The notes under the pieces were generated by a model that was not told the origin of the DNA, did no database searches, and was given only the letters and a program-made list of their open reading frames with translations. From the NCBI GenBank assembly GCA_018714685.1, contig DVNC01000036.1:1-61376 (forward strand): 61,376 nucleotides of DNA, read 5' to 3'. Made by a program: the position numbers and the translations under genes. The stretch is from Candidatus Scatocola faecipullorum (lineage in GTDB: Bacteria; Pseudomonadota; Alphaproteobacteria; RF32; CAG-239). Shown in pieces: positions 28,601 to 55,237 of the stretch (its first letter is position 1; each line of letters begins with the position of its first letter).

Positions 28601-28621
28601 GATTAAGCGACGGGGAAACTG

Positions 28622-29380: not shown

Positions 29381-29494
29381 ACTGTTGATAAGTTGGGGAT
29401 TTCCTCAAGACGATATTAGACTTTTAATTTAAAAGAGTATAATTTCGTAATATCTATACGAGTACTCACGAAACATAGATTAAAAGGATAAGAC

Positions 29495-29683: not shown

Positions 29684-29694
29684 GGACTGATGAA

Positions 29695-30426: not shown

Positions 30427-30445
30427 GTTTATAAGGTATATAAAA

Positions 30446-32089
30446 ATGATTTTGAGAGTTGGCAAATTATTCTTTATCGGCGCTTTGGCGGTTCTGTTCA
30501 GCCGCGCGGCTTATTCTCAGGCGACAATGGGCAGCCTTGACCAGAATGCCGACCAGAGCCAGGGGCAGTATATGCCGATGAACCTGGGCTATGCCGGTTT
30601 TAACTCTCTGGGAATGACGCAGGCCGCCTGGCTTGATCCTCTGCAAAATCTGGGCGAAGGTCAAAGCAAGCCGGCTTATTCCAAATATTACTGGTCGCCC
30701 GATCTGATTCTGCCGATACGTCTCCGCGAAGGGATGATTACCCTGCTTAATTTTCCGCAGTGGGAACTGATTGAAGATATGTATATCGGTGACAACGCTA
30801 CTTTTGACGGGCAGATTTCCGGCCCGAACACCATTTTGCTCTATCCGCGCAAAGGGGCTAACGTTGGCGTCGATACCAACATTATTATCTTTGGCCGCTC
30901 CGGCAACAAATATGTCTTTTATGTCAGAAGTGAAGGTGTTAATACCGAGCGCCTGACCAACTCGATTATTGATATTGATGTCATTGACGGTCCGGCCGGC
31001 TCCCGCGGCGCCGGAATGGTCGGCGGCAGCGTCGGCGGCGGTTCGGGAATGAACGCGTCTTCTTATAAGGCCGGTAACAGCCATTCGGCGGATTCCCTTT
31101 TTACTAAGCGGTTTCAACGGAGTGACTGGATTAAGGAAATTCCGCTTGACCCGACCAAGTTCCGCTTTGATATAGAGGTCTATGTTCCCAATCCTGACGA
31201 TGTGGTCATTGCTCCGGAACGTGTCTGGCGCGATGATATCTTTACTTATATCGATTTGGGCGAAAAAGCTCTGAATATGACCCAGCGTCCGATAGTAACC
31301 CTGATTGTCGAACGCATTGAAGTTCCGGTCGGCTTCCGCACCAAAGGGCCGAACAACCGTCTGATTATCGTTGAAGGCATCGGCGATATGGTTCTGCGCA
31401 ACGGCAAGCGGATTGTTTGCCTGAAAATGCGCCGCTCGGACGATGCCGGTCTGGAAAATGCAACTTATGCGACCGATTTTGATGATTCTGCCTGGGACGT
31501 TCCTCCCGCAATGCCGGGTCAGCAAGCTCGGAACGGACAGGTCTCCGGCGGCAGCGGCAGTGACAGCGAGTTTAACGGCGGCGGGGCTGCCGGCGGCGGA
31601 ATGCCCGGCCAGTATGATATTCAGGTCGGACAAAGTGAAATTGTCGTGCCTCGTTACGGCAATGGCGGTGGCGGTAATGTAAATGTCAATTACCAAGGCC
31701 CGCAGCCCGATGACGGATTTGATTATTCGAAAATGCAGCATATCCGCAACAATAATAAATATGCCGGCAGCGGAGCTGGAGCGCCCGGCGGCAATTTTGG
31801 TTTCGGTGCGGGGTTTGCCGATACGGACAGCTCCAATATTTCCATCGAACTCGGAACCGATGCCAATGTCGGCAATCTGGAAACGCTTTGGAGCCAGCTG
31901 TCGAAAAAATATCCTGATGTCCTCAGCCGCTATGAACCTTTCTTCTCGGTTGACGCGCCGGCAGACGGGCAGGGAAAAGAACTGTTCCACCTCCGGGTCG
32001 GTCCGGTCAAAAGTTTGGAAGCGGGCGACAATGTATGCAGCCGCCTTGGACGTAACGGTGTATTTTGTAGTGTAGTCAGAACGCAATGA
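30446..32089 (+). CDS. virB9: VirB9/TrbG outer-membrane core protein fused to a C-terminal SPOR-like domain
   Basis: Signal peptide, IRLREGMITLLNFP..E.I....GD, TNIII...KYVF, IAPERVWRDDIFTYI, MVLRNGKRIVC. Gly-rich linker, then IELG...LWSQL..KYPDVL...FHLRVGPV...CSRL...GVFCSVV (31831-32089). Confidence 0.85.
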   Translation: MILRVGKLFFIGALAVLFSRAAYSQATMGSLDQNADQSQGQYMPMNLGYAGFNSLGMTQAAWLDPLQNLGEGQSKPAYSKYYWSPDLILPIRLREGMITLLNFPQWELIEDMYIGDNATFDGQISGPNTILLYPRKGANVGVDTNIIIFGRSGNKYVFYVRSEGVNTERLTNSIIDIDVIDGPAGSRGAGMVGGSVGGGSGMNASSYKAGNSHSADSLFTKRFQRSDWIKEIPLDPTKFRFDIEVYVPNPDDVVIAPERVWRDDIFTYIDLGEKALNMTQRPIVTLIVERIEVPVGFRTKGPNNRLIIVEGIGDMVLRNGKRIVCLKMRRSDDAGLENATYATDFDDSAWDVPPAMPGQQARNGQVSGGSGSDSEFNGGGAAGGGMPGQYDIQVGQSEIVVPRYGNGGGGNVNVNYQGPQPDDGFDYSKMQHIRNNNKYAGSGAGAPGGNFGFGAGFADTDSSNISIELGTDANVGNLETLWSQLSKKYPDVLSRYEPFFSVDAPADGQGKELFHLRVGPVKSLEAGDNVCSRLGRNGVFCSVVRTQ

Positions 32090-35000: not shown

Positions 35001-36003
35001 TGTTGCCGTCGGCAAAATCAACGGCGATTTGGCCAGCTTCTACGGTCGTCAGCTCGGTGCCGTCGTCAAAAAAGGGCTGGTTGCCGATTTTAAGGGCAAT
35101 CCGATTGGTTTGGTAAACCATGACGGGCAGGTTATCAATCGTTTTGGCGAGGTCTTGGGGCATATTGACGCCAAAGGAAGCTTTATTGACGCCAAAGGAG
35201 ACTATCGCGGCGGTGTTGTGTCCAAGGGCAGCGCTATCGGCTATGACGGTTCTTTCCTCGGTTACGCCGTAACCGACGGTGCGGTTATCAGCATGGAAGG
35301 AGCCAAAGTCGGACAGGTAACCTCGGATAACAAGGTGGTTGACTTGAAAAATAAAGTCATCGGCGAAGTCATTCCTGAAAATATCGTAGTTGACATCTGG
35401 GGCAATTATAAAGGGCGCGTCAACTCCTTGGGCGATGTTATCGACCTGAAAGATGAAGTTATTTCCGCTGTTTTGCCCGGAGGCTCGACCGATAAGAACC
35501 TGAGCCTGCTGCACCGCGGTGCGGTAATTGACTTTGGCGGCAACCTGACCGGGGCCGTTATGCCGGACGGAACCGTCATTGATCGTGAAAACGTTGCCGT
35601 CGGCCGAGTTCTCTCCGACGGAAACGTCATCAGCCGGGCCGGCAAACTGATAGGTGAGGTGGTCAACGGCGATATTGTTATTGATAACTCTGATAAAGTT
35701 GTGGGCTATGTTAATTTTGATGGTAAAATCAGAGACCGGGACGGCAGTCTGATCGGGCGTATGCTGTCCGGTGATTTAGCCATTGACAACAATGACAATA
35801 TTATGGGAAAGGTTTACAAAATCGGAGCGACGGTTTTGGGTAATGACGGCAATTACGTCGGCCGTCTGACGGCGGAAGGAACCGTTGTCGATGCCGAAGG
35901 AAAATCCATCGGTTACCTGAAGAACAACGGCTCTTATATTGATTTGGATAAGAAGGTGGCGGGCTATGCGCTTCAGGAAGTCGCAAAGAACCGGAGGAAC
36001 TGA
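32086..36003 (+). CDS. Membrane-anchored protein with an ASH/Ig-like domain and ~1000 aa of DG-x-V-V-D-x-N-G-N-V-I-G (DUF3659-like) repeats
   Basis: N-terminal TM IILVVGLTSFVIFVIGVMLLM, then PNPVQMGQV...TL...C...L...C.I...W.P...G Ig-like domain, then dozens of ~16-aa repeats. Coupled to virB9 (ATGA). Confidence 0.8.
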   Translation: MSKEVLTHSESYVKKTNRIILVVGLTSFVIFVIGVMLLMQSGPVQEDYTEPVFTDNDDALNISNDTGPTDNIEFGVVDDGEPPITTTPNPVQMGQVVLGTDAKNVLTLGTNAKAAVSIISVQLAEPPFDGFTFEDDCSGKTLRGHETCDITMGWSPVVPGNVQNNFIIAWHEANLTNANAKSAKVPVEGNAIRKEDCNFCEQTLPGKTDAPTAQGTLKTRNAIGPNGEVIGTIDEDGYVRDANGNVIGRVNSAGMVVDENGNVIGVAENRRLVYDENGNVIGYVNPDGTVVDKDGNIIGRMLPDGTVVDLNGNVIGRAVDAGFVYDKNGNIIGRVQPDGSVVDMNGNVIGRLNEKGEVVDTDGNVIGRVSKQGRVAVDENGNVIGVVMPDGSVVDKNGNIVGFVDENGRVVGKNILGNAGGQVKLAYDKNGKVIGYVDENGNVVDAHGNVIGHVDGAGNVVDENGNVIGKAVSLPQRRLAYDKNGNIMGYIDKDGNVIDPGGNIIGKVQPDGSIVDANGNVIGQAATIPGRRLVYDKDGNVIGYVDEDGNVRDANGNIIGRVLPDGTVVDKDGNVIGKVADMNIGAQRRLAYDKDGNVIGYIDENGNVVDFNGNVIGKMLEDGTLVDLDGNVIGKAGELVNLVLDKDGKVIGYLTEDGKVYDLNGNQIGYVDENGNIVSTQDKTLGALVQTRMIPITPKGTVLGRLNSDGTVVQDMKTVGRVLSNGLVRDPSGSEVIARLVRGGLVVGYGCKNIGYLEADGKIRKGNQETKLKPMPDGVILDAENNYVGEVVKTGRVFDNTCTYLGDVGTDGIVRTPEGVYVGCVNPDGTVLNEQGEIIGGVARSGVAVSYDGEYLGQVSPDGLVIALSQQPVGCVGTYGDVFSKNGSYIGRVLDKTYAYDLHGNFMNVVGPNGKVAISGQPDARLYANNLVANNRNEIIGVLMDEKTTLLTPEGKFLGRLFPDGQVYNEKGVAVGKINGDLASFYGRQLGAVVKKGLVADFKGNPIGLVNHDGQVINRFGEVLGHIDAKGSFIDAKGDYRGGVVSKGSAIGYDGSFLGYAVTDGAVISMEGAKVGQVTSDNKVVDLKNKVIGEVIPENIVVDIWGNYKGRVNSLGDVIDLKDEVISAVLPGGSTDKNLSLLHRGAVIDFGGNLTGAVMPDGTVIDRENVAVGRVLSDGNVISRAGKLIGEVVNGDIVIDNSDKVVGYVNFDGKIRDRDGSLIGRMLSGDLAIDNNDNIMGKVYKIGATVLGNDGNYVGRLTAEGTVVDAEGKSIGYLKNNGSYIDLDKKVAGYALQEVAKNRRN

Positions 36004-36004
36004 A

Positions 36005-39000
36005 TTGAGTTTGCGGATGAACGGATATAACTTTTTGCTGGCCAGATTAATCCGTGGGGCCTGTATTGTCGCGGGCATGCTCTTGCTGAACCTGTCTGCC
36101 GCGGCCGCTCAGGAGATTACCGCTGTTGACTTCAACGGCGATTTAATCGGTAAAGTTATTCCCGACGGTAAGGTCGTCAGTTTTGACAACCAGCTGATTG
36201 GCAACGTAACCGCCGACAGCTTGATTACCGATTTTGACGGAAACATCATCGGCGGCGTTATTCCGCAGGGTATTGCCATCGGCAACGACAATAAACCGCT
36301 CGGTAAAGTAAATAACGACGGCTCCGTTCGTCTGGCTTCGGGAAAGATTATTGCAAAAGTGCTGCCTAACGGCCTGGTTGTTGATGACTTTTTCAACATA
36401 ACCGGTGCCGTGCTGTTCCCCGGTCTGGTCTATTCTGATGACGGGCGTACTGTCGGCCGCCTGACCGGTGACGGTCTCTATACCAATCTGCAGGGGCAGG
36501 AAATCGGTTTCATTTCTCCTGACGGTTATGCTTATCGCCGGGTCGGACAGGAATATGTTCTGGACGGCCGCCTGATTTCCTCCAAAATGGTGGTTTCGCA
36601 GTCGGGCGAATTTATCGGCAGTGTGGCTCCCGGCGGCAATGTAACGAATTTTGATGCGGTTACCATCGGTTTTATCAAAGCCAACGGATTTGCCTATAAT
36701 GAAAATAATCAGATTATCGGAAGTATCGTCCGCTCGGGCTATGCGCTTGACAACAACGGAAAATATCTCGGCTTTGTGACTTATAACGGCGAAGTCGTCA
36801 ATAAAAATAACGTGGTCGGCCATTTGCAGGCAGACGGTCTGATTGCCGGAGACAACGGGGAATTAATCGGTTATGTGGTTGATTTTGCCGCGACGGCTAC
36901 CGATTTGAACGGTAAATATCTGGGGCGTATTATGCCGGAAGGCAAACTTGCCCGCAGCCGGGATATAATCGGCTCGGTCGGAGCCCGCGGAATAACTTAT
37001 GCTGCCGACGGTACCGTAAACGGTAAATTGATACAGGCCGGTCCTGTTTTTGACTATCGCGGCGGTCTCCGCGGTCACGCGCTGAAAAATGCTTCGGTCA
37101 TTTTGCTGGAAGGAACCCCTGCCGGCTATATTATGGACAACATTGCTTATGAAAATGCCGGTCGGGCTATCGGTGCCACCATGGGAAATCTGCTGGCAAT
37201 CAATACCGGCAACCAAACTTTGGGCATGGTTGGCATCAGCGGTATGGTCATGGACGGCGAAGAACGCAAATTTATGTCTCCGTTCGGCTATCTCTTTTCG
37301 GCTGACGGCAAAACCGGCGGCCGCGGCTTGGCTTTGTCTTCGATTTATAATCTGACCGGAGCGCCGGTTGCCCAGATGACTCCGGCTGGCGGTCTGATCA
37401 ACAAAAATGCGGCGGCTATCGGCAAATTGACTCAGTCGGGCTTTAATATTGACGAACGTAATCTGGTTATCGGCAAGAATTTGGAAGCCGGCTATGTCGT
37501 CGGTCCGGCCGGACAGAGCCTCGGCAATTTGTCCGAGAGCAATCTGGTTTTGAACAATAATCTGGAACCGGTTGCCAAACTTCTGCCGGATAACACGGTT
37601 GTTTCCGCAGACAGCAATACATCGGTGAATATGATGCCGGTTGTCGGCCGCGGTTCGGTTAATAATATGGTTCTGGCCTTCAGCGGCAGTCTGATCGGCT
37701 ACGCCGGCCCTTCCGGGATTGTCCGTGATTTCAACGGGGCGCGTTTGGGCAAAGTGGCGGCTGAAGATATGGTGCTTGACAATATGGGCTCCAGCCTTGG
37801 CGGCACTGTCGGCTATGCGCCGGTCATCGATAACAAATGTTCTCTTTTAGGCGTGATAACGCCCCGCGGCGACATTCGCAATTACCGTGAAACGGTCATG
37901 GGGCGCCCGCTGCTGAACGGACAGGCTATTTCCGAAAACGGAAGCTATATGGGCTATGCGGTTAAACCCACGGCGGTCATTGACTATAACGGCAATATTA
38001 TCGGTACCGTGTCGGCCACCGGACAGGTAATGAACTATAACAATGATGTTCTGGGCTGTATCGATAAAAGAGGTTTCCTGAAATCTGACGAAGGAATGTC
38101 TCTGGCTCATACGATTGAATATGCCCCTGTTATGAACTTTAACGGAATAATTATCGGCCGCAATATCCTGGACGGACAGATTGTCAATGACCAGAACCAG
38201 TTCATCGGCTACACTCAGGCCAACGGAAACGTTAATTCCAAAACCGGTATGCCGATCGGCCACCTGTTTAAATATCGTCATGCTTTCAGCCTGGCCAACA
38301 AATATATCGGCCGCATTAATGAAAAAGCTGAAGTGATTGACGGCAGCGGCGCCGTCGTCGGAACCGTCGATTTTGAAGGCAATGTCTCCCGGGAGAACCA
38401 TAAAATCGGCTATGCTCTGTATGATATGTATGTTTATGACAATGATTTTGAGGCAATCGGCTATATTCTGAAAGACGGTACCGTGCTCTCCTTTATTAAC
38501 CAAAATCTGGGAACATTGAGCAAAGGCTTTCTGATTAATAAAAACGGCGAAGTTACCGGCCGCGGCAACAGAGATTTTTACATTCGCGACGACAGCAACT
38601 TGATTCTCGGCGAATTATACCTGAACGGCGAATTGCGCGATAACAGCGGCAATGTTCTCGGCACGGTCACCAAAAACGGCAGCATCATAGACAAGGACGG
38701 GCGCGTCGTGGCCATGGCCAAACCGCTGCAGTATTATGGAGAAATGGTTGCCCGTGAAAAAGTTTATGACCAAAACGGCAACTTAATCGGCTATGTTAAC
38801 GCCGATGGTTCGGTAACCGACGAAAACGGAAATATTATCGGCTACGTCCAGAACGGCAAAGTCGTAGATAAATCCGGCAAGCTGTTGGGTGAGCTGGCCA
38901 GTGAGAAAGTGGCTTACGACAAAGACGGCAATATCATCGGTAAAGTTCTGCCGGACGGAACGGTAGTGGATGCCAACGGCAAAGTGATTGGCAAAGTCGG

Positions 39001-41206
39001 AGCCAACGGTGAAATTACCGATGCAAACGGTAATTTGATCGGTTCCATTAAAGGGCCGGGCAGCGGCGATAATCTTGCCTATGATGCAAACGGCAATGTC
39101 CTCGGGCGGATTTTGCCCGACGGTTCGGTTATCGACGGCAACGGTAACGTTATCGGGCATGTTAATGCCAAAGGAGAAATCGTTGACAACAGCGGAAAGG
39201 TGATAGGCGTTTCCGGAAAAGAAATGCTGGCTTATGATGCTGACGGAAATGTTATCGGCCGCTTGTTGCCGGATGGTTCTGTTGTCGATTTGAACGGTAA
39301 TGTTGTCGGCCATGTCAATGAAAACGGCGAGGTTGTAGATGCCGACGGTAATGTCATCGGCAGCGCCAGCACGGCCAATCTGGCTTTTGATGAAAACGGA
39401 AAAGTTATCGGACAGGTGTTGGCCGACGGAACCGTCGTTGACGCCAACGGCAAGGTAATCGGCAGGGTTAATGCTAAAGGTGAAGTTGTTGACAATTCCG
39501 GAAATGTCGTCGGCAAAGCAAATATTGACAGCTTGGCGTTTGACAAGGACGGACGCGTCATTGGCCGCGTTAATGCCAACGGCGATGTGGTTGACAAAGA
39601 CGGCAAGGTGATAGGCCGCGTTAATGAAAATGGTGAAGTCGTCAGTGCTGACGGCAAAGTCATCGGCTATGCCAAAAAGCCGTCCTGGTACAAACGTCCC
39701 GGAGCATTGCCTGAAATCGGCCTTTCGCCGGAAGAACGCGAAATAACCGAAAAATATCGCAAGTCTTTAGGCATTGCCCTGACGCCGGACGGTGAATATC
39801 TTGGTGAAATTATGGAAGACGGTCGCGTCGTTAACAAGGCCGGAGAAGTTGTCGGCCACCGTATGCCTGACGGTTTGATTATTGATGACGAAGGCGCCCT
39901 GGTCGGTATTGAGGAGAGTGAAAAGCCGGCCGCAGGTGAAATGTTTATTCCCGCTGGAACCTTCGGCAAAGGCGGTGCTTATGGCACCGGAACCGGACCG
40001 GGTGCAAATCTTGGTCCCGGCGGCGGCTTTGGCCCCGGTGAACGGTATGATCCCCAGCGAGCCGCTGCGCTTGATGCCGCGCAGCAGGAACGCCGCAGCA
40101 ATATGCAGGTCGGCAAAATCAGCAGCAACATCAGTCCGGATGCTTTCGACGGTATGCAGAAAAACTGGGATGAGCAGGGCATTAAAAAGGCCATTTCCTC
40201 CTGGAGGGTTGACTTAAGTGAAATGATTTTCGCCGATAAGCCGATTCCCGCGGTTATTGCCCGTTCGATTGACAGTAACAATCCGACCCCGGTAACAGCC
40301 TATGTTGAACGTAATATTTACGCCGAGGAAGGACGTAAAATCATTATTCCTGCCGGCAGCCGTATTATGGGAACTCTCGGCGGCCTGACCGGAACCTCGG
40401 AAACCACGTCACAGTCGGCGAAAGTTCAAATTTCTTGGGAACGCCTGATTCGTCCGGACGGTTCGCTGTTTGTCTTCAGCGGTGTCACCGGCGATGCGCA
40501 GGGCCGCGGCGGTGCTTTGGGCTATCTTGACCAGCAGCTGTTTAAGAAATATACGTTGCCGATTATGACCACGGCTTTGACCAGCTATACTTCCTATATG
40601 ATGGCCGATGACGAGAATACCGACAGCGGCAGCGTTAACGAAACGCCGAAACAGCAGGCCGCCAATGATGCCCGCCAGAACTTCCTGAATCAGATGAACC
40701 AAGTCTTTGAGCAGATTTTGTCGGATAAAACCAATATTCGCCCGCTGACTTATGTTCCCGCCGGCACCCGCATCATTGTTTATCCGAACGTTGATCTCTG
40801 GATGCGCACCCGTGAACGCAATCCGCAGGAATTGGGCGGTCAGGGCAAGAAAGACGTCTTTATTGATGACCCGCAGACCACCGGTAAGCGTGAGCTTGAA
40901 AAGAACCGCCGCAGCCTCGGCAAGACCGAGACTGCTCCGACCGGTGCCGGCAGCGTTGTTTATGAATCTCAGGATATAGACGTTGAAGCCGCCGGCGGAA
41001 CGCCTACATTGATTGATGACAGCAAGCCGTCTAATTCCGGCAAGAAAACCAATAATCCGCCGCCGCTGATTTCCAGCCCGGTCGCCGGGGCAACCCCGCC
41101 GCCTCCGCCGTCTTTCGCCACATCCCCCACTCCGGGAGCGGCAACCGCGGGCAGCAACACCGGCAGCAGCAATAATACCAATAACAGCGTTCCGCAGCTG
41201 TTCTAA
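36005..41206 (+). CDS. virB10: Giant VirB10/TrbI with ~1250 aa of N-terminal repeats
   Basis: Probable TTG start at 36005 (GGAGG 7 nt upstream; alternative ATG at 36017), signal peptide AAAA|QE and repeats. TrbI domain at ~40240-40800: IPAVIARSIDS..P..VTAYVERNIY...IPAGSRIMG...WERLIRPDG...DAQGRGG...VPAGTRIIV. Confidence 0.88.
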   Translation: MSLRMNGYNFLLARLIRGACIVAGMLLLNLSAAAAQEITAVDFNGDLIGKVIPDGKVVSFDNQLIGNVTADSLITDFDGNIIGGVIPQGIAIGNDNKPLGKVNNDGSVRLASGKIIAKVLPNGLVVDDFFNITGAVLFPGLVYSDDGRTVGRLTGDGLYTNLQGQEIGFISPDGYAYRRVGQEYVLDGRLISSKMVVSQSGEFIGSVAPGGNVTNFDAVTIGFIKANGFAYNENNQIIGSIVRSGYALDNNGKYLGFVTYNGEVVNKNNVVGHLQADGLIAGDNGELIGYVVDFAATATDLNGKYLGRIMPEGKLARSRDIIGSVGARGITYAADGTVNGKLIQAGPVFDYRGGLRGHALKNASVILLEGTPAGYIMDNIAYENAGRAIGATMGNLLAINTGNQTLGMVGISGMVMDGEERKFMSPFGYLFSADGKTGGRGLALSSIYNLTGAPVAQMTPAGGLINKNAAAIGKLTQSGFNIDERNLVIGKNLEAGYVVGPAGQSLGNLSESNLVLNNNLEPVAKLLPDNTVVSADSNTSVNMMPVVGRGSVNNMVLAFSGSLIGYAGPSGIVRDFNGARLGKVAAEDMVLDNMGSSLGGTVGYAPVIDNKCSLLGVITPRGDIRNYRETVMGRPLLNGQAISENGSYMGYAVKPTAVIDYNGNIIGTVSATGQVMNYNNDVLGCIDKRGFLKSDEGMSLAHTIEYAPVMNFNGIIIGRNILDGQIVNDQNQFIGYTQANGNVNSKTGMPIGHLFKYRHAFSLANKYIGRINEKAEVIDGSGAVVGTVDFEGNVSRENHKIGYALYDMYVYDNDFEAIGYILKDGTVLSFINQNLGTLSKGFLINKNGEVTGRGNRDFYIRDDSNLILGELYLNGELRDNSGNVLGTVTKNGSIIDKDGRVVAMAKPLQYYGEMVAREKVYDQNGNLIGYVNADGSVTDENGNIIGYVQNGKVVDKSGKLLGELASEKVAYDKDGNIIGKVLPDGTVVDANGKVIGKVGANGEITDANGNLIGSIKGPGSGDNLAYDANGNVLGRILPDGSVIDGNGNVIGHVNAKGEIVDNSGKVIGVSGKEMLAYDADGNVIGRLLPDGSVVDLNGNVVGHVNENGEVVDADGNVIGSASTANLAFDENGKVIGQVLADGTVVDANGKVIGRVNAKGEVVDNSGNVVGKANIDSLAFDKDGRVIGRVNANGDVVDKDGKVIGRVNENGEVVSADGKVIGYAKKPSWYKRPGALPEIGLSPEEREITEKYRKSLGIALTPDGEYLGEIMEDGRVVNKAGEVVGHRMPDGLIIDDEGALVGIEESEKPAAGEMFIPAGTFGKGGAYGTGTGPGANLGPGGGFGPGERYDPQRAAALDAAQQERRSNMQVGKISSNISPDAFDGMQKNWDEQGIKKAISSWRVDLSEMIFADKPIPAVIARSIDSNNPTPVTAYVERNIYAEEGRKIIIPAGSRIMGTLGGLTGTSETTSQSAKVQISWERLIRPDGSLFVFSGVTGDAQGRGGALGYLDQQLFKKYTLPIMTTALTSYTSYMMADDENTDSGSVNETPKQQAANDARQNFLNQMNQVFEQILSDKTNIRPLTYVPAGTRIIVYPNVDLWMRTRERNPQELGGQGKKDVFIDDPQTTGKRELEKNRRSLGKTETAPTGAGSVVYESQDIDVEAAGGTPTLIDDSKPSNSGKKTNNPPPLISSPVAGATPPPPPSFATSPTPGAATAGSNTGSSNNTNNSVPQLF

Positions 41207-41218
41207 GGAGTTTAAACA

Positions 41219-42187
41219 ATGAGTTTTAAGGTTCTGGAATCTGTTCTTCGTCCCTTGGCTTACTGGTATAACCAGGAAAACATCGAGGAAGTTGCCGTCA
41301 ACCGCTCTGGGCAGGTTTGGCTGCGCCTGCGCGGCAAACGCGCTTATCCCTGGGTGATGTATAAAGATGAAAAACTTACTAAAGAATATCTGACGGATTT
41401 GCTTTATATTATTGCCAATACCTATGAACTTCCCTTTGACCCGGTACAGGGAACGCCGGTGGTTTATGCCACCATCCCCGGCGACCACCGTTTTTCTGCC
41501 GTCAGCGGACGTAACGTTATGTATGACCAGGATGACCTGACCGGCGGTGTCGCTCTGACAATCCGTGTCCACAGCGACGATGTTGCTTTCGGGTTGCAGG
41601 ACTATGGCCTGAAACAAGGCGAAAGCCTGCATAAGGTTAATCCTCTGAAAGATATTCAGGACCCCGAAGATCCCTATGAGCGTCTGCTGTTGAGCATTAA
41701 ACGCGGGGACCATATTCTCGTTTCCGGCGCTACGGCAACCGGTAAAACCACGTTCTTAAACAACCTGCTTAAGATTTTGGATATCCATAAGCGGATTATC
41801 ACAATTGAAGATACGCGCGAATTGCTGGTGCCGCATCCGAACCGTGTTCATATTGTTATGTCCCGTACCGAGCAGACTAACGAGTTCGACTATTCGAAAA
41901 TTATCGACCTGGTGGTTCGTTTTACGCCCGACGCCATCATCGGCGGCGAGATTTCTACCAATAACGCCGGCGCATTGTGGGAGCTGATGGGATCCGGTCA
42001 CGATAACTGCCTGGCCACCATCCATGCCGAAAGTTCGGAAGCAGCCTATGAAGCTTTTGTTGACCGTATTCTGCACAGCTATCCGACAATTGACCGTGAA
42101 AAAACCATTAAGGAAATGCACCGCAAACTCCGTGTTGTCCAAATCAACCGCGACGGCAACCTGCGTGCGGTAACCGAAGTAACATAA
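41219..42187 (+). CDS. virB11: VirB11 ATPase
   Basis: IEEVAVN, ILVSGATATGKTTFLN, RIITIEDTREL, RFTPDAIIGGE, GHDNCLATIHA. Confidence 0.92.
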   Translation: MSFKVLESVLRPLAYWYNQENIEEVAVNRSGQVWLRLRGKRAYPWVMYKDEKLTKEYLTDLLYIIANTYELPFDPVQGTPVVYATIPGDHRFSAVSGRNVMYDQDDLTGGVALTIRVHSDDVAFGLQDYGLKQGESLHKVNPLKDIQDPEDPYERLLLSIKRGDHILVSGATATGKTTFLNNLLKILDIHKRIITIEDTRELLVPHPNRVHIVMSRTEQTNEFDYSKIIDLVVRFTPDAIIGGEISTNNAGALWELMGSGHDNCLATIHAESSEAAYEAFVDRILHSYPTIDREKTIKEMHRKLRVVQINRDGNLRAVTEVT

Positions 42188-48243: not shown

Positions 48244-49215
48244 TTAAAGGTAGATTGCAACCACTTTATGAAGGCTGTTCAAATCGTCGTTGCTGATTTC
48301 AATCCGTTCATCCGGATTCCATCTCAAGCCGTAAAGCTGTCCGTTTTCATCTTCGCGGATACTGACGATTTTGGCTTCTTTTTCATTGCTGTAATAAACG
48401 GCAATGTCTCCGACGCTGACAACATCCTGCGGATCGACAAACAAAATTGAACGTGTCGGCAACAGGCTTCCGAGGCGGCGGGTGCAGAGATTAACGGCAT
48501 AAGCGTCTTTTTTGTTGTATAACTGCGGCGGACGCTGAACTTTTTTGGTCTCCTGACTGAATTCAATGATAACGTCGCCGTCTTTTCCGGCCACGCCGTA
48601 AACTGAAATTTTAACGCCGTCCTGATTGGAATTTCCGAAAGCGGAAATTGCTCCGCGCGGGGTGGACAACAGTTTGTATTTGGCATCGTTGCGCTGAATA
48701 ATCTCTTCCAGCATGCCTTTGTCTTCCAGAGCTTTAATCTGCTCTTTCAACTCTTCCGGAGCCATATTGATGGCCTTGGCAATATTTTTAAATTCTTTGT
48801 CGGAAACTTCACGCTGGCCCATTTCAATACGGTGGTAAACTGAAAGGGTCATATCGGCGCTTTCGGCAACTTCAATCAGCGTCAGGTTCTTTTCGTTGCG
48901 GATCTGACGCAAACCGGCACCCAAAGTTTTCAAACCGCTTTTTTCGTTGATTTTGTTTCTTCTCTCCTGTTCGCGCCTCCAGGATTGGACAACTTCCTGC
49001 TGGGAATTCTGTTCATTAACAAATAAATCCTGCAGCGGGCAGTCCAGAAATTCGGCAACACGAACCAGCTGCTCCTGGTCCACGCGGCGGTAACCCTTTT
49101 CAATTTTAGAGATTGCAGAAAGGCTGACGGACAAATGATCGGCAAGTTCCTGCATCGAGCGTCCGCGAAGTCTTCTGTACATTCTGATTTGGTTCGGGAA
49201 AATAATTTCTTCCAT
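48244..49215 (-). CDS. XRE-family regulator with two HTH domains and a degenerate S24/CI-like C-terminal domain
   Basis: IRMYRRLRGRSMQELADHLSVSLSAISKIEKG and LRQIRNEKNLTLIEVAESADMTLSVYHRIEMG. C-terminal VYGVAG...RPPQL...AYAV...ILFVDP..VSVGDIAV...HKVVAI. Confidence 0.85.
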   Translation of the reverse strand: MEEIIFPNQIRMYRRLRGRSMQELADHLSVSLSAISKIEKGYRRVDQEQLVRVAEFLDCPLQDLFVNEQNSQQEVVQSWRREQERRNKINEKSGLKTLGAGLRQIRNEKNLTLIEVAESADMTLSVYHRIEMGQREVSDKEFKNIAKAINMAPEELKEQIKALEDKGMLEEIIQRNDAKYKLLSTPRGAISAFGNSNQDGVKISVYGVAGKDGDVIIEFSQETKKVQRPPQLYNKKDAYAVNLCTRRLGSLLPTRSILFVDPQDVVSVGDIAVYYSNEKEAKIVSIREDENGQLYGLRWNPDERIEISNDDLNSLHKVVAIYL

Positions 49216-49381: not shown

Positions 49382-52300
49382 TTATTTTCCGAATTCGGCC
49401 ATCGGCTGGTCTTTTCCGTAAGTGGCGACTTGTTCTCTGAAAAGCTGCATATCCGCTTCGCTCATCATAATTTCGTCTGCCGGAACAGACCGGTTGAATT
49501 TGCCGTTGCTGTCCATTGAGCGGGTGTGTGCCGAATTATAGTTTTTGGCAAAGGCATAGTTGTTTTTAACGCTCTTGGCATCAACCGTGCCATCCTTGTT
49601 CAGATGGTAATTTGATTTTTTGTTGATGATGCCGTCGGACGCATAGCTTTCGGCTTTGCCGTTTTTGCCGATGTGGGTGTAAGTCAGCATATCACGCTTG
49701 TCACCCTTGGTCATCTCAAAGATGCTGGTCGAGCCGTCGGCATTGGTCTGCTTAACCCTGAAGACTTCGCGTCCCTGGTCATCCAGCGTACGGCTGACCT
49801 CGCGGTCTTTGAATTCGCGGTTCATATCTGCCCCGGGAACACCGCCCATACGTTCCTGCATCATCTGGTTCATAATCGCCTTATCGACATCGTCATTGGA
49901 CATGCCGCTGCCGCTGCGGATTGCATGAATGGCCACTTCGTTGCGGGTGCCGTCACGGTTCAGCAATGTCTTCCCGGCAGCGGTATTCATTCTTGTTTCC
50001 TCGCGAATAAGGTTTCCGTCTTTGTCATAAGTCTTCTTGTTCTGAATGAACTTGTCATTGTTAACGGAGGTTGCCTTATTGCCGCGCAGGCTCTGTTTTG
50101 CCCGTGTAACCGTTCTGGTGCCGTCCGGAGCAACTTGCAGCGTATCGGTAACCTTGCGGCCGTACCAGGTACGGTGTTGCAAAGTTTTGTTGCCGTCGGC
50201 ATCGGTTACCGTTCGGTCATCGTTTTCAATTTTTTTAGCTCGGCGGTTTACTTTATATGAGTTATAAGCTTCCCGCCCGCGGTCAAGAGCCATGCCGCCG
50301 ACTTTACGGGTTGCTTTGCCCGCTGTTTTGAGCCCTCCGATTGCCGCGGTGTTTGCCGTGGATGCGGCCAAACCGCCGACTTTCGAACCGATGTCTTTGA
50401 CGCCGATGCTCTTGGCGAAACTTCCGGCAAAGGAATTGGCTTCACCCAGAACCGCCCAGCCGAGAATCATATAGAAAACGAGTTTCAGGAATGTGGTTCC
50501 CCACCATGCCAGATTGCTCAGAATAACCTTGTAACCGCTTCGGGTTCCGACATCAGACATCGCTCCGCCGCTCTCAACCCCTGCTTTTGATAAAACATCC
50601 ATCAGACCGTTGGTCAGAATAAAGATAATCAGCGACAGGAAAATAAAGTTAAACATACAGTTAAGGAACGTATCCCACACTTTGCCCACATATTTTTGCG
50701 TTGATTTGAAAGCGTAAGCCCCGATTGCCGCCGGCAGCAGCGCCGTCGCCACCGTCAGCTGCAAAACCGAGTCAATCAGCAGGAACGGATAGATAATCAG
50801 CAGCAGAATTGCGGCAATCCACAACACAAGACCGACAATCAGATAGCCCAGATGCGGGAAGAGGGCAAGGCCGTGCCATGATTCGACATACAAAGCGACG
50901 CAAATGGATGTCGAGCCCAAAGCCATAACATCAAGAATTTTATCCTGAATGGTCTTAATTGTGCACAAAATGCTGACACCCATACTGGCCGGAAGGCCTG
51001 CACCTTTTTCTTCGGTTAAAATATCAAACGTGGATCCGTCGCAGGTTTCGCCGTTCGCACCTTCAGTCGCAATTTGCGCCAGTTTAAACCCGGTATTGAA
51101 TATCGGTTCCATCGCCAGCCGGAAAAAGTCTGCCGAATTGAGACGCAGCAGCGTGACGACAATCAGCACCAGAAACGCTTTGTTCAAAATTGTTTTAACC
51201 AGAATACTCGGATTCTTTTGCTCCATGGAGGAAATAAACTGCATAACCGTAATGCCGAGCCAGAGAGCAAAGCCGACGCAAACCAGCATGATAACGCCGT
51301 CTGCCAGTGCATTGTATGATTTTTTCGCAACCGAGCTGGCGGTATTAAACAAAACACCGAAAATATCACAGAAAATACATGTCTTGAAACTGCTGCGATA
51401 ACTTTCGACATTACATTCGCGATCGCCTTTATCTGCGGATTCGGTAGATACCGCGCCGGTATATTCATTTAAATAAGCCGGGCGGGACGCTTGCCCGAGC
51501 CGGACGGAAGCCGACGGATATTCGTCTTCTTCACAGGCGCGTTTGCCGGTAACTTTTTGTGAGGCTTCTTCCAAAGATGAGCCGTTTTCCATTTCTTTTC
51601 GAATAGCTAACGATTCGAGCGCTAATTTTTCATCTTTGGCCGCGCGTTTGGCATAAGGGGTTTTATCTGCATATCCCGAATACATGACTTCGGCATAGCT
51701 TGCATAATAAGCGGAAATAATCGTTTCGTCGGAAGCCGTTTCAAAGGTTTCGGGAGCAATTGCTCTTTGAACCGCCTGAAAATTGTTTCTCATCGGGCCG
51801 GCACCGGCAACCGCACCGGCTAAAATAATCATATCCATTTCGGGAGAGCGGTTAAGCAAACTTCCCATGCCGGCTTTTTTCAAAACACTTTTGCCGTAGC
51901 TTAAATAGTGATTTTCAATATATTCTCTTTGTGAAGTTCCGAAAGAACTGTCTTGGGAGGCTAAGGCCTGCCATTTCTGCGAAAATTGCGTAGCCGGCGG
52001 ATTGCAGGCGGCGTTAATGGTGCTTTGCAATGAGCCGCCTATTTCCAGTGCCTTATATTTACTGGGATCATTCTTCTGCAAATGTTGCAAATAACTGGCC
52101 ATTGTTGAATTATTCCATTTTGAGGAATCCCGGTAGCAGACCATTTGCGAAACGCCATAAGAACAGCCGCCTTTATCATCTGCCCAGCATTTGTTGAAAG
52201 CGCCGGCATCGCCTCCGGATTCACCCTGTTGGTGAAAAGCGGACAGATTATCTGCCGGAAGCAGTTTGCCGCATTTGCCTAAACTGGCTTCCGCCGTCAC

Positions 52301-53101
52301 CATTTGCGGATCCGGATCGTTTTCGATAACCGGTGCTTCCGGAACCGGAACGTTGCCGTCGCACAAAGCATCTGCCGAAGCGCAGGCGGGAGACAAAATC
52401 TTACCTTTTCCCGTGCCGCCGTCACGCAGTTCAATATGCAGGTGAGCGCCATATGCGCCGTGTTTGGTCGTGCCGTCCGAACAACCGGTGGTTCCGACGT
52501 AGCCGATGGTCGTTCCTTTGGCGATTTTTTCTTTGGTTCCTGCAATTTTTTTTGTTTTGTCGGCAAATTTTTGCAGATGCATATATGTTGTTGTATATTG
52601 TCCGCCGCCGGCTTTTTCATGCTGCATAATAACAGTATTGCCGCCGCCGCCGTAACAGGAGCTGATTGATAAAATAACTCCGTCGGCCGCTGCGGTAACC
52701 GGAGTCCCTTCCGGTACGGCGACATCCATCCCCTGATGTTCACGATAACATTTGCCGTCGGGATATTTTACTTTTGTGCTGTATGAACTGTTGCAACTGG
52801 TAGAACGGTGGCAGGCTTCTTCGGAAATTCGTCCGACGGAGTTGAGAGAACCTTTGGTTTCAACCGGAACAGTATTCAGACAGCCTTTTTGCATTTCTTC
52901 AATTCGGCTGTTGGGATAAAGCTTCCTTGAAGCTGCGGCACCGTCAATTTTACAGGGATGAAATTGAACGGCGCAGGTATTAGACACGTCTGCGGCCCGA
53001 GCGGAGGAGATGCCGGCCGTATTCAAGCCCAGCCATAAAACGGCGGCAAATGCCAATCCGGCTTGTCTGGTCAATTTAGATATGTTAGTCATCATCTCCA
53101 T
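49382..53101 (-). CDS. virB6: VirB6/TrbL-like protein 4, fused to an M23 peptidase and a lysozyme-like (VgrG3-type) domain
   Basis: Signal peptide, M23 motifs HQGMD, YMHL and HLHIE, then ESGG...DKGGCSYGVSQM...FSQKWQALASQDSSFGTSQREYIENHY. Followed by CIFC, a polytopic domain with LIDSVLQL...LLP....YAFKSTQKY..W, and a basic C-terminal tail. Confidence 0.75.
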   Translation of the reverse strand: MEMMTNISKLTRQAGLAFAAVLWLGLNTAGISSARAADVSNTCAVQFHPCKIDGAAASRKLYPNSRIEEMQKGCLNTVPVETKGSLNSVGRISEEACHRSTSCNSSYSTKVKYPDGKCYREHQGMDVAVPEGTPVTAAADGVILSISSCYGGGGNTVIMQHEKAGGGQYTTTYMHLQKFADKTKKIAGTKEKIAKGTTIGYVGTTGCSDGTTKHGAYGAHLHIELRDGGTGKGKILSPACASADALCDGNVPVPEAPVIENDPDPQMVTAEASLGKCGKLLPADNLSAFHQQGESGGDAGAFNKCWADDKGGCSYGVSQMVCYRDSSKWNNSTMASYLQHLQKNDPSKYKALEIGGSLQSTINAACNPPATQFSQKWQALASQDSSFGTSQREYIENHYLSYGKSVLKKAGMGSLLNRSPEMDMIILAGAVAGAGPMRNNFQAVQRAIAPETFETASDETIISAYYASYAEVMYSGYADKTPYAKRAAKDEKLALESLAIRKEMENGSSLEEASQKVTGKRACEEDEYPSASVRLGQASRPAYLNEYTGAVSTESADKGDRECNVESYRSSFKTCIFCDIFGVLFNTASSVAKKSYNALADGVIMLVCVGFALWLGITVMQFISSMEQKNPSILVKTILNKAFLVLIVVTLLRLNSADFFRLAMEPIFNTGFKLAQIATEGANGETCDGSTFDILTEEKGAGLPASMGVSILCTIKTIQDKILDVMALGSTSICVALYVESWHGLALFPHLGYLIVGLVLWIAAILLLIIYPFLLIDSVLQLTVATALLPAAIGAYAFKSTQKYVGKVWDTFLNCMFNFIFLSLIIFILTNGLMDVLSKAGVESGGAMSDVGTRSGYKVILSNLAWWGTTFLKLVFYMILGWAVLGEANSFAGSFAKSIGVKDIGSKVGGLAASTANTAAIGGLKTAGKATRKVGGMALDRGREAYNSYKVNRRAKKIENDDRTVTDADGNKTLQHRTWYGRKVTDTLQVAPDGTRTVTRAKQSLRGNKATSVNNDKFIQNKKTYDKDGNLIREETRMNTAAGKTLLNRDGTRNEVAIHAIRSGSGMSNDDVDKAIMNQMMQERMGGVPGADMNREFKDREVSRTLDDQGREVFRVKQTNADGSTSIFEMTKGDKRDMLTYTHIGKNGKAESYASDGIINKKSNYHLNKDGTVDAKSVKNNYAFAKNYNSAHTRSMDSNGKFNRSVPADEIMMSEADMQLFREQVATYGKDQPMAEFGK

Positions 53102-53113: not shown

Positions 53114-55237
53114 TTAATTCGGCTTATTGTTGTCTTTCGGGCTGTCGCCTTCTTTCTTGCCCTCATTGTCTTTTTTGTCTGCGTCTTTATTGTCTTTGTT
53201 GGCATCTTTGCCGCCGTTTACCCGGTTTTTGACAAAGTTGACGGCCCCGCCGGCAACGGCTCCGGCAGCCCGTGTCGCCTGATGAGTGACAACGCCGCCG
53301 GCAAAAGACGCGGCCTGAGTGACCTTGTTTTTTACAAAGGCGGTCATCTGGGTTGCTTTCATGTGCATCGGAGAGGCATCACCGAATGTGCTGTCGTTAA
53401 AGAATTTTCCGACATAACCGGTAACCGTGGCGCCGATCATTTTAATGCTGTAAACATAAGCAAACATAATCAGGATAAAGTTTGCGCCTGAAATGGAAAA
53501 GGTGTTGGAAACCCATTCCGCATCGCCGGCCTTGATTTTGGCATAGAAAGTCGTCAAATCGCCTAATGACACGCTTATCAGCGATAATGCATAAGAAGTG
53601 GTCAAAGCCAGGAAAGTAAACAAAGCTGCCGAACGGAAAATAATGCTCATGCACGATGTAAACTTGCCTGATGTCGGCCCGAACGGCCAGAGACCGATAA
53701 CAATCGGCAGTGCCATAATGCAGAATCCGATTTTGAAACAAACGTCAAGCAGATAGTAACCGATACCTAAAGTCAGCATAAAACCGCAGAACCAGATAGC
53801 GGCACCGCACAGCCAAATCCAGAGGTCAGGAATACGGATAGTGACGTTAACACCGAATAATCCGCCAGTATATTCCAACATGCCTGCATTAAAAGAGTGG
53901 CAGGTGAGGGCATGTCCGATAACCAGATTGGTGGAAACCGTCTTGTCGATTCCCTCGGTTAAAGCCATAATTTTGTTAATAACTACCGGAGAAATAATTT
54001 CTGTACCGTTATAGGTAAAGTTTGAGGTCAAAGCAACTTTGATTATTCCCTGATTTGCCGCCTGTAACAATCCCAGCCCGTAGTCGGCACCGGCCAGCAG
54101 CAAAGGATTGACGAACAGGTCAACAATGGCGCCGATCCCCACGTTAATTACGATATAGGCGGCGGCAACCTTGAACATGAAGATCAGCAGTGTGTTGAGA
54201 ATGCTCATCGGTTCTTGGTTGGTAAAAGCCGAGACAAGCTTCAGGGCAAATGCGGCCAGCCACAACATTGATCCGATAACCAACACCTTGCTTCCGGCTT
54301 CTCTGGTTAAATCATAAACTTTACCGCAGGCATTCATAAACGTCGTAATCAGCGTCATGATAATTTTGCAGGAATAACAGGTGGACTGATACATCTTCTG
54401 CATGTCGGGAATACTGCAAGCCGAATTGTCCCCGCGTTTTACCGTTATGCCGTCCTCTTCGGTTGTGTTTTTCCCTGTTTCATCAGTCTTAACCGTATAA
54501 GAAGAAAATCCGGCTGTTGTTGTAACAACGGTACTGGTATCCGTACCCTTTTCTACAGGTTTCTGTTTTTCTCCAAATAAAGGTTTTTTCACATCTTCAG
54601 ACTTTTTACATGTATAAGATAATGTTGATGAAGAATATGAACCTCCCGTCCCTTGAACTGACACACTGTAGCTGGAGTAGCATTCCATACCTTCCGGACA
54701 TCCTCGCGGATATTCGCTGCCGCAAGGTTGATATTCTCCGGCTGCAACGGCACGCTTATGCTCAGCTAATTCTTCGGCACGTGCAAACTCTAATTCCGTG
54801 TTTAATTTTTCATATTCCGCTTTTAAGCTGTCGTATTCATTTTTAAAACTGGGGTTTTGAGCAATAATTTTATCAAATCTTTGGTTATATTCGTCAACAG
54901 TTTCCTGTTTCCATCCCCAGTCAAAAGATTGAGTTGGAAATACATTTGTATCTACTTTTTCACCATTATCTTCTCTTTGTTCTAAGTGTTTTGCTAATTT
55001 TTCGCAAAAATTTTTTAATTTTGTTGTGGCTGCATTAACTTCATTAACCTTTTGCTGCGTTTTTTGAGTGTCCAAAGGCTCAAAAGCTTTTTCTCCTTTG
55101 GAACGGCCTTGATAAGCAGAGCCGCATGTTTCTTCAGTAAAATTTATCGTCCAAGCATTAACCGGGCGGATAACGCTAAGGGAAAGAAATCCTGCCAGAA
55201 AGAAGTTAAAAATATGTTTGAGGAGTTTATCAGTCAT
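53114..55237 (-). CDS. virB6: VirB6/TrbL-like protein 3 with an AT-rich N-terminal cargo domain
   Basis: Signal peptide, ~250-aa soluble domain, CYSC, multiple TMs, YYLLD..F...ALPI.IGLWPFGPT. Confidence 0.7.
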   Translation of the reverse strand: MTDKLLKHIFNFFLAGFLSLSVIRPVNAWTINFTEETCGSAYQGRSKGEKAFEPLDTQKTQQKVNEVNAATTKLKNFCEKLAKHLEQREDNGEKVDTNVFPTQSFDWGWKQETVDEYNQRFDKIIAQNPSFKNEYDSLKAEYEKLNTELEFARAEELAEHKRAVAAGEYQPCGSEYPRGCPEGMECYSSYSVSVQGTGGSYSSSTLSYTCKKSEDVKKPLFGEKQKPVEKGTDTSTVVTTTAGFSSYTVKTDETGKNTTEEDGITVKRGDNSACSIPDMQKMYQSTCYSCKIIMTLITTFMNACGKVYDLTREAGSKVLVIGSMLWLAAFALKLVSAFTNQEPMSILNTLLIFMFKVAAAYIVINVGIGAIVDLFVNPLLLAGADYGLGLLQAANQGIIKVALTSNFTYNGTEIISPVVINKIMALTEGIDKTVSTNLVIGHALTCHSFNAGMLEYTGGLFGVNVTIRIPDLWIWLCGAAIWFCGFMLTLGIGYYLLDVCFKIGFCIMALPIVIGLWPFGPTSGKFTSCMSIIFRSAALFTFLALTTSYALSLISVSLGDLTTFYAKIKAGDAEWVSNTFSISGANFILIMFAYVYSIKMIGATVTGYVGKFFNDSTFGDASPMHMKATQMTAFVKNKVTQAASFAGGVVTHQATRAAGAVAGGAVNFVKNRVNGGKDANKDNKDADKKDNEGKKEGDSPKDNNKPN

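Follow-up and report, generated by a model that had tools for sequence, protein, structure and literature searches.

We describe here a protein that joins two peptidoglycan hydrolase domains to a VirB6-type membrane subunit of a type IV secretion system (T4SS). It is encoded by Candidatus Scatocola faecipullorum, an uncultured alphaproteobacterium, on a stretch of 61,376 nucleotides (contig DVNC01000036.1 of assembly GCA_018714685.1) that is hereafter called the window; it is a whole contig of a 1.74-Mb genome in 62 contigs that is 98.8% complete. By domain membership, the 1239-residue product is an M23 peptidase, a glycosidase of the PF21277 family with a GH46 fold, and a VirB6 protein. An earlier note, drawn from the letters of the window, had singled out this triple fusion. 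The fusion is real, although far from unique, as many related VirB6 proteins form a family whose N-terminal heads are swappable.

We propose, with moderate confidence, that the tethered hydrolases provide a built-in VirB1-like function acting on the producer's own cell wall. This proposal follows from the covalent link to a T4SS subunit, the predicted periplasmic side of the enzymes, their kept active sites and the flexible linkers between the domains, and it is favoured because an SLT domain of the VirB1 type takes the same slot in orthologues of the same genus. In the mechanism that we envisage, the Sec pathway would export the N-terminus, the M23 endopeptidase would cut peptide cross-links and the VgrG3C/GH46-fold glycosidase would cut glycan strands. 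In the periplasm, a flexible linker some 70 residues long would connect both enzymes to a five-helix VirB6 domain that would lie in the inner membrane and match the pentameric stalk base of the solved R388 machine, with the C-terminal beta domain facing the cytoplasm. Held in this way, the two enzymes could open the producer's peptidoglycan exactly where the stalk or pilus passes, following the same two-enzyme logic as the T4SS hydrolases of Gram-positive bacteria.

Two peptidoglycan hydrolase domains with conserved active sites

The first enzyme domain matches Peptidase_M23 (PF01551) at residues 121–229 (E 7.3e-20; 71.4 bits against a cut-off of 28.7). The zinc site that the earlier note had read as intact is indeed so: H122 and D126 (HxxxD, within HQGMD from residue 122, nucleotides 52738–52724), H175 (within YMHL from residue 173) and H220 and H222 (HxH, within HLHIE from residue 220, nucleotides 52444–52430), which we take to be the zinc-binding and catalytic residues, are invariant in 26/26 sequences spanning 37–87% identity. 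The predicted structure superposes on 2gu1 (Z 16.0, root-mean-square deviation (rmsd) 1.9 Å, 134 residues) and on ShyA (6ue4_B, Z 15.6). The best fold matches include, besides ShyA, the proteins Csd3 and DipM, and the LytM domains of EnvC also match structurally (Z 14.3–14.8), as one would expect if the domain were a degenerate activator or scaffold resembling EnvC or NlpD. Degenerate LytM factors of this type are not known to keep these active-site residues; because all five are invariant in the 26 sequences, we regard a non-catalytic role as extremely improbable and infer an active endopeptidase that would cut peptide cross-links.

The second domain had been likened in the earlier note to the lysozyme-like C-terminal domain of Vibrio cholerae VgrG3, an antibacterial type VI secretion system (T6SS) effector, and three lines of evidence agree with this. 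It matches T6SS_VgrG3-like_C (PF21277) at residues 292–473 (E 2.6e-12; 47.6 bits against a cut-off of 27, and 51.3 bits in a scan of the genome, in which no other protein carries this family). The model shows a lysozyme-superfamily fold, residues 282–502 superposing on the VgrG3 C-terminal domain 4nso_A (Z 15.3, rmsd 3.3 Å, 189/197 residues aligned, 20% identity) and on 4noo_A (Z 14.9), with lower scores for GH46 chitosanases (Z 10.5–13.6). A profile of the domain retrieved the same structures from PDB sequences (4noo_A, E 1.7e-10; 4nso_A, 3.4e-10; chitosanase 7c6c, 5.1e-7). The profile of relatives was needed, as the single 1239-residue sequence matched M23 chains only in the PDB, without VgrG3; similarly, Foldseek with the two-domain model placed only M23 structures among its top rows, and the VgrG3C and chitosanase matches came from VIA.

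Three motifs mark the domain, namely GESGG from residue 293, DKGGCSYG from residue 309 and RSPEMD from residue 418. Glu294 and Asp309 align to the Glu and Asp of 'ESAG...(15)...DYGGASYGCYQM' in VgrG3 (4noo_A), presumably its catalytic residues E827 and D842, and the two domains have the motif E-x15-D-GG-SYG-Q in common. E294, D309, N303, G311, Y315, G316 and Q319 are invariant in 21/21 sequences, and the domain would be a glycosidase cutting glycan strands. Five cysteines in or just after it (C277, C313, C322, C366 and C523) are likewise invariant in the alignment with 21 relatives; C313 and C322 correspond to Ala and Ser in VgrG3 in the profile alignment. The invariant, lineage-specific cysteines of the N-terminal half fit residence in an oxidising periplasm.

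As a whole, the protein is not a VgrG3 effector, because it lacks the VgrG spike, a T6SS and an adjacent immunity gene. VgrG3 of strain N16961 is described as a cell-wall-targeting effector with a lysozyme-like domain (PMC9927483). The domain studied here belongs to the same PF21277 family, with the same fold and motif, but differs by its low identity, by its cysteines and by being predicted to be exported by a signal peptide and tethered to a membrane rather than fired into a target. The VgrG3-type T6SS effector was accordingly tried and rejected as an identity for the entire protein: the N-terminus consists of a signal peptide and the M23 domain, the context is a T4SS, and 166 bp separate the stop codon from the next gene, which encodes a helix-turn-helix (HTH) protein and not a TsiV3-like immunity protein.

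Read by eye, residues 1–36 resemble a Sec signal peptide, with a K/R n-region, a hydrophobic core and an A-R-A/A motif. A model of residues 1–560, built from the alignment with 21 relatives, has a mean predicted local distance difference test score (pLDDT) of 79.5, with both enzyme domains mostly at 85–97 and flexible linkers below 50 on either side of domain 2 (residues 250–267 and 537–560). The sequence strings quoted in the earlier note all occur in the 1239-residue translation, its segment at about 51600–52240 being residues ~288–500. Its layout of three domains also stands, but it had overlooked a conserved, beta-rich C-terminal domain of about 300 residues. Among NCBIfam models, the M23 part gave the sole match, far under any equivalog cut-off.

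Such long linkers could also allow the periplasmic part to be cleaved off, as happens to VirB1 of Agrobacterium, whose processed product VirB1* promotes T-pilus formation (PMC2653234); the released part would then serve pilus formation or adhesion besides, or instead of, cutting. There is no sign of processing in our protein, and the strict conservation of both active sites argues that catalysis is the selected function, which makes such a released accessory factor improbable.

A VirB6 fold in the membrane half

The VirB6-like nature of the membrane part, also proposed in the earlier note, could not be settled from this protein alone, as its match to TrbL/VirB6 (PF04610) at residues 703–843 falls under the cut-off (E 1.1e-4; 22.5 bits against 25.9). 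It is backed by the relatives, 16/21 of which match Pfam TrbL at E <= 0.01 (best E 6.2e-8), and by the fold. In a model of residues 541–1239 (alignment with 21 relatives; mean pLDDT 71.5), residues 573–901 superpose on 8rt9_F from the R388 stalk over the entire solved chain (VIA Z 16.2, 272/272 residues, rmsd 4.8 Å, 15% identity). The R388 chains 7o3v_F and 8rtd_L follow at Z 16.1, and the next row, which is unrelated, is at Z 7.0. Foldseek placed the same R388 chains at the top (E 6.1e-4, probability 1.00). We take chain F of 8rt9 to be TrwI/VirB6, and not TrwJ/VirB5, because it is helical, spans residues 2–273 and aligned to the hydrophobic helices. Fold comparison alone found VirB6: a profile of the membrane half searched against PDB sequences returned no VirB6, the best match (E 0.21) being an ABC permease.

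The model and a hydropathy scan place five membrane helices at about residues 600–622, 631–652, 755–777, 808–829 and 869–890; an alternative reading has six, with 758–776 and 779–797 forming a hairpin. Positive charges concentrate in a K-rich loop at 798–807 and in a K/R-rich stretch after the last transmembrane helix. Together with the predicted signal peptide, these features suggest an N-out/C-in topology, in which both enzymes and the 653–754 loop would be periplasmic, and the 798–807 loop and C-terminal domain cytoplasmic; the cytoplasmic side is assigned to the latter because of the five helices, the N-out start and the charged stretch that follows them. VirB6 of Agrobacterium tumefaciens has the same N-out/C-in layout. 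The C-terminal domain itself is kept across relatives and is modelled as beta hairpins with pLDDT 75–92. Its fold matches are weak (Z 5–7) and concern the single-layer sheets of OspA, teneurin and Rhs proteins; a comparison with the ESM Atlas gave no usable match.

In R388, VirB6 is reported to be a pentamer (PMC12624023), so that the stalk base could bear as many as five heads. The make-up of the ring may differ here, where four VirB6 paralogues exist. Four VirB6-like genes stand in tandem, in the order 951, 441, 707 and 1239 aa, the studied gene being the final one, and the association with a T4SS that the earlier note had suggested is clear from the surrounding cluster, which also encodes VirB2, VirB4, two VirB8, VirB9, VirB10 and VirB11 (Table 1).

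A family conserved across an uncultured order

A search of a protein collection, in which 7996 candidates were scored, identified 189 relatives at E <= 0.001. One cluster, 100% identical to the studied protein, represents 1956 member sequences, and the sole database name for the relatives is 'MAG: M23 family metallopeptidase [Alphaproteobacteria bacterium]'. Species-representative genomes contributed four loci, at 59–66% identity, all from metagenome-assembled genomes of uncultured Alphaproteobacteria or of an uncultured proteobacterium. Within the same order, 195/201 genomes (1.1–2.0 Mb, 22/22 genera) match at E <= 1e-20, mostly over the membrane and C-terminal parts. Class-wide, the profile of these two parts matches 21/301 genomes, all small (0.9–2.5 Mb) and often with two to three tandem VirB6 open reading frames (ORFs); tandem VirB6 ORFs were matched by the profile in 18 other small alphaproteobacterial genomes. 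Eight VirB6 ORFs from other families were scanned for head domains, and one of them is an M23–TrbL fusion of 648 aa (locus L070; M23 at residues 84–186, TrbL at 399–550), which shows that M23–VirB6 fusions exist outside the family of the window. This ORF occupies positions 34–1977 (+) in a genome of another alphaproteobacterial family (G231).

In a collection of plasmids searched by tblastn, 190 records matched the M23 part only, covering at most 15% of the query each, and no comparable fusion was found, a result that does not mean absence because VirB6 is too divergent. The T4SS is a chromosomal system kept across the lineage. Between congeners (loci L001, L003 and L004), the VirB6 paralogues, at 60–75% identity, evolve much faster than their flanks at 95–99% (95% for the HTH protein and 98–99% for VirB11).

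Modular heads on the VirB6 orthologues

To compare N-terminal heads, we collected positional orthologues from 76 loci, each in a different genome, and kept 70; locus L043, with a partial sequence, and loci L092–L096, from genus g6 and a second family, with a core identity of only 25–29%, were left out. Heads were called with local hidden Markov models (HMMs) built from the relatives' alignments (M23 and VgrG3C-like) and with phmmer using SLT and SGNH pieces. The most common head is M23 only (30 genomes), followed by M23 with a VgrG3C-like domain, as in the window (19 genomes). A VgrG3C-like domain alone forms the head in two genomes, and single genomes have M23 + SLT, SGNH + SLT, M23 + SGNH + SLT, or SLT only. 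No head was recognised in 15 genomes. Pfam agreed when applied to the 65 heads that are 60 residues or longer (M23 in 51, PF21277 in 17, SLT in four, GH46 in five and GDSL in one), with the GDSL/SGNH matches under its cut-off.

The three heads that combine SLT with other modules come from the genus of the window, and the SLT-only head (L086) from another genus, g2. Because it occupies the slot of the VgrG3C-like module, including in these three congeners, the canonical SLT domain of VirB1 is interchangeable with that module. Seven of the 15 headless orthologues have fewer than 100 residues ahead of the core. In six of the 15, the orthologue of the upstream 707-aa paralogue bears an M23 domain ahead of its own membrane core. 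In the other nine, the lineage-built HMMs detected no M23, VgrG3C-like or SLT domain on the N-terminal heads of the VirB6 proteins (all four paralogues being recovered in 6/9), the sole weak SLT-like match (E 6.2e-4, L105) lying far C-terminal in the ORF of the 707-aa paralogue. The same HMMs, which could miss divergent enzymes, found no stand-alone hydrolase gene in the VirB6 block of these nine genomes either.

Head types cluster on a membrane-core tree (computed as a quick IQ-TREE run with SH-aLRT, an approximate likelihood ratio test, as sole branch support, the 951-aa paralogue serving as root), with 14 changes against a least possible number of seven and a shuffled mean of 34.2. Judged from this tree, heads are mostly inherited within clades. 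Compared with the five closest congeners, heads are 45–61% and cores 69–72% identical. Inherited within clades and diverging only somewhat faster than the core, the heads do not follow the pattern of hypervariable toxins. Loci L041, L042, L044 and L072, all from the genus of the window, carry a divergent allele whose core is 37–41% identical to ours, as compared with 66–70% for five other congeners; they form a long, well supported branch, and their ORFs encode 1186–1858 aa.

The census also bears on whether the protein could be a general wall enzyme for growth, shape or division that is merely anchored by a VirB6-like domain, with no T4SS role. Roles in cell shape or division are common among M23 proteins, the best fold matches include ShyA, Csd3 and DipM, and the gene is near-universal in the lineage. 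Nevertheless, it always lies within the block of four VirB6 paralogues, the head moves between adjacent paralogues yet remains in the block, and three other M23 ORFs and two SLT ORFs are present elsewhere in the genome. We consider such housekeeping very improbable.

Own wall or target wall

The earlier note had left the choice between the producer's own wall and the wall of a target cell open. The SLT domain in the same slot leads us to favour the former, and we keep the latter as a rather unlikely alternative. The T4SS would in that case act on competitors, prey or host bacteria, and the head, either freed from VirB6 by proteolysis or displayed at the contact site, would be a weapon or entry tool that cuts their wall. 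Several observations are compatible with this scenario: the homology of domain 2 to the antibacterial effector domain of VgrG3; the variation of head types within one genus; the SGNH/GDSL-like module beside SLT in some congeners, which might suit O-acetylated foreign walls; and the fast evolution of the VirB6 paralogues relative to their flanks. Moreover, the system is chromosomal and near-universal in the small genomes of this order, it has giant repeat proteins and a cluster for a type IVb pilus as neighbours, and searches of the genome for the Relaxase and TrwC families, the only two relaxase families searched, gave no match. One may even imagine, although we find it quite unlikely, that this T4SS without a detected relaxase is a contact-dependent device against other cells, with exchangeable heads (M23, VgrG3C-like, SLT and SGNH esterase) matched to target walls and released or pushed out with the stalk.

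However, the head is covalently bound to an inner-membrane domain with five transmembrane helices, for which neither a released form nor a site of cleavage has been reported. The domain that shares its slot in congeners is the SLT domain, which acts on the own wall, head sequences are not hypervariable, and several genomes have no head at all. In addition, the loci checked contain no neighbouring immunity gene that changes along with the head. In 17/22 loci searched, whatever the head type, the 707-aa paralogue is followed by the headed VirB6 and then by the HTH gene; locus L039 is too short to include the 707-aa paralogue but still has the HTH gene after VirB6, which brings the HTH gene downstream in 18/22. 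In the eight other loci measured (L020, L023, L034, L036, L037, L039, L045 and L046), 134–319 bp separate the stop codon of VirB6 from the HTH gene. As in the window, this is too short to accommodate an immunity gene specific to the head.

Action on the own wall nevertheless has to be weighed against a number of unfavourable points. Among characterised proteins, domain 2 is closest to an antibacterial T6SS effector. In a current assembly model, VirB1 acts with VirB8, VirB9 and VirB10 before the VirB5/VirB6 stalk is inserted (PMC12624023), and a hydrolase borne by VirB6 misfits this order. The task of VirB1 could be fulfilled by two SLT ORFs located elsewhere in the genome (593 aa on contig C32 and 262 aa on C33). 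The 'missing VirB1' of the earlier note thus applies to the T4SS cluster and its contig, since no SLT domain was found on these 61 kb, but not to the genome. The head is also dispensable, because in 9/70 genomes the lineage-built HMMs recognised no hydrolase on any VirB6 paralogue fetched. The 70 orthologues were hand-picked, as 30 best matches plus genomes chosen for unusual ORF length or genus coverage.

The evolutionary record of the heads includes repeated gain and loss, with at least four changes for the VgrG3C-like module and at least seven for M23 on the core tree, and several head types occur in one genus on two very divergent alleles, which resembles polymorphic toxins. The flank of the SLT clade differs as well: in L044 and L072 the gap widens to about 1.1 kb and contains no convincing ORF, and no HTH gene lies within about 2.5 kb in L041 and L042. 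In L042 (genome G119), a 199-aa ORF with a signal-peptide-like start (1872–2468, –) directly follows the SGNH + SLT-headed VirB6. It is not present in the other loci checked and may encode an inhibitor or immunity protein, or be unrelated. Finally, the enzymatic activity and topology that we assume are predictions, and the organism is uncultured.

Comparison with known systems

If the hydrolases do open the producer's wall, their nearest functional counterpart is VirB1 of A. tumefaciens and its relatives, which is presumed to open the producer's peptidoglycan locally for T4SS assembly. The same SLT domain fills the same slot in congeneric orthologues, and the head is dispensable in some lineages, as VirB1 has been reported to be non-essential (PMC2653234). 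By contrast, Gram-negative VirB1 is described as a soluble protein with a single SLT enzyme (PMC12857230), whereas in the studied protein both an M23 peptidase and a glycosidase of VgrG3C/GH46 fold are fused to VirB6. It is not a VirB1, because Pfam finds no SLT match in it.

A combination of glycan- and peptide-cutting domains (CHAP, SLT, MUR and LytM) is described for PrgK of pCF10, TraG of pIP501 and Orf14 of Tn916 (PMC12857230). Our protein resembles them in that an endopeptidase and a glycan-cutting enzyme belong to one T4SS subunit. These three proteins come from monoderm systems and are held at the membrane by a simple N-terminal transmembrane segment, while the anchor here is a polytopic VirB6, C-terminal to the enzymes, in a T4SS of diderm type with VirB9 and VirB10. 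The R388 protein TrwI/VirB6 (8RT9, 7O3V and 8RTD) corresponds to the membrane domain only, as it has neither N-terminal enzymes nor the 300-aa C-terminal domain, and four paralogues are present here.

Tandem, enlarged VirB6 paralogues with extensions are also found in the rvh T4SS of the Rickettsiales, another group of Alphaproteobacteria with small genomes. In these bacteria, five VirB6 proteins (RvhB6a–e) of 674–1154 aa are described, together with a VirB1-like transglycosylase of Rickettsia that is a separate protein of about 290 aa, and in the text available from that source there is no mention of a hydrolase domain on RvhB6 (PMC2653234). The rvh type is marked by several VirB6 paralogues, by duplicated VirB4, VirB8 and VirB9 and by the lack of VirB5. 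VirB8 is duplicated in the window as well; the two systems differ in that we find one VirB4 instead of two, one VirB9 and four VirB6. T4SS-linked peptidoglycan hydrolases are known, moreover, as the effectors of the bacteria-killing T4SS of Xanthomonadales. These are separate secreted proteins, and not fusions to VirB6; their secretion domain is C-terminal, and each is paired with a cognate immunity protein.

The earlier note knew of no description of the triple fusion, and none was found here: searches of the open-access and bioRxiv literature retrieved no account of a hydrolase–VirB6 fusion, nor any paper on type IV secretion in RF32, the lineage to which the organism is assigned, and the accessible parts of T4SS reviews mention fusion only for VirB3–VirB4 (PMC12857230, PMC12624023). 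The fusion is not a new principle. What seems new is the presence of wall hydrolases on VirB6, in a T4SS that is conserved but unstudied. For diderm T4SSs, only models exist of the place and time at which the own wall is cut. The natural fusion of hydrolases to VirB6, which in congeners include the SLT domain of VirB1 type, is a Rosetta-stone hint that the stalk base and the cutting of the wall can be coupled; it also offers a handle for locating the hydrolase in cryo-electron tomography maps. A T6SS effector fold that serves as a resident part of a machine would blur the line between toxins and assembly enzymes. Finally, the fusion marks a conserved T4SS, with four VirB6 paralogues and no relaxase found, in nearly all sampled genomes of a widespread uncultured order.

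The T4SS locus and its neighbourhood

The features of the window are listed in Table 1. The genome has one VirB4 copy and a single T4SS, and one VirB9 was found.

Table 1. Positions of the studied gene, of its domains and of neighbouring T4SS genes in the window
Feature	Position	Strand	Basis
Hydrolase-headed VirB6 paralogue, whole ORF, 1239 aa	49382..53101	-	ORF list, translation, Pfam
Predicted Sec signal peptide (A-R-A/A), residues 1–36	52994..53101	-	Read by eye from the sequence; homologue N-termini alike
M23 (LytM-type) zinc endopeptidase domain, residues ~111–245	52367..52771	-	Pfam, invariant site, fold
VgrG3-C / GH46-chitosanase-fold glycosidase domain, residues ~277–505	51587..52273	-	PF21277, profile against PDB, fold
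Linker/tether, partly disordered, residues ~506–572	51386..51586	-	pLDDT <50 at 537–560; low-complexity, variable alignment columns
VirB6/TrbL membrane domain, five predicted transmembrane helices, residues ~573–901	50399..51385	-	Fold, Pfam in relatives, hydropathy
Beta-rich C-terminal domain, conserved, predicted cytoplasmic, residues ~940–1239	49385..50284	-	Alignments of relatives, model
VirB6-like paralogue, 707 aa, upstream neighbour	53114..55237	-	Similarity to studied protein, E 8.3e-4
VirB6-like paralogue, 441 aa	55240..56565	-	Pfam TrbL, E 1.1e-4; similarity to studied protein, E 1.1e-10
VirB6-like paralogue, 951 aa	56590..59445	-	Pfam TrbL, 27.1 bits, above cut-off; similarity, E 5.2e-36
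Protein with two HTH_3 domains, 323 aa, downstream gene	48244..49215	-	Pfam
Remaining T4SS: VirB2-like pilin, VirB4, two VirB8, VirB9-SPOR, 1755-aa VirB10, VirB11	13476..42187	+	

Two ORFs for VirD4/TraG-like coupling proteins (740 and 791 aa) were found on two other contigs, C57 and C42, away from the only VirB4. The VirB9/CagX-like protein (30446–32089, +) ends in a SPOR peptidoglycan-binding domain (28 bits against a cut-off of 21), which represents a second link of this T4SS to the cell wall. Positions 32086–41206 (+) encode two giant proteins rich in beta-flower, DUF3659 and RHS-like repeats, namely a repeat protein of 1305 aa and the VirB10, whose TrbI domain (residues 1430–1621) comes after repeats that extend over about 1000 residues. 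Directly beside the T4SS lies a type IVb pilus cluster (237–12733, –) that looks complete and encodes two PilS/bundlin-like pilins, a T2SSF platform protein, two T2SSE ATPases, a PilO-like protein, a secretin and a TcpQ-like protein.

The HTH protein is 60–93% identical across genera and is among the most conserved products of the locus, second to VirB11; it may be a regulator of the VirB6 block. A 1029-aa ORF (45012–48101, –) has no Pfam match; its AT skew is strongly negative, and both strands contain many long frames that overlap. It evolves fast, at 54–56% identity between congeners, compared with 84–90% for a 243-aa ORF of the same loci. No RNA family of Rfam was detected in the window.

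In many relatives, the orthologue starts 8–9.5 kb from a contig end (for example, on G133:C8, G166:C43, G033:C4, G152:C32, G046:C16 and G037:C1), as it does here, where the start at 53101 is followed by the end of the contig at 61376. The assemblies thus seem to share a breakpoint, and a 145-aa ORF may be closely followed by a repeat.

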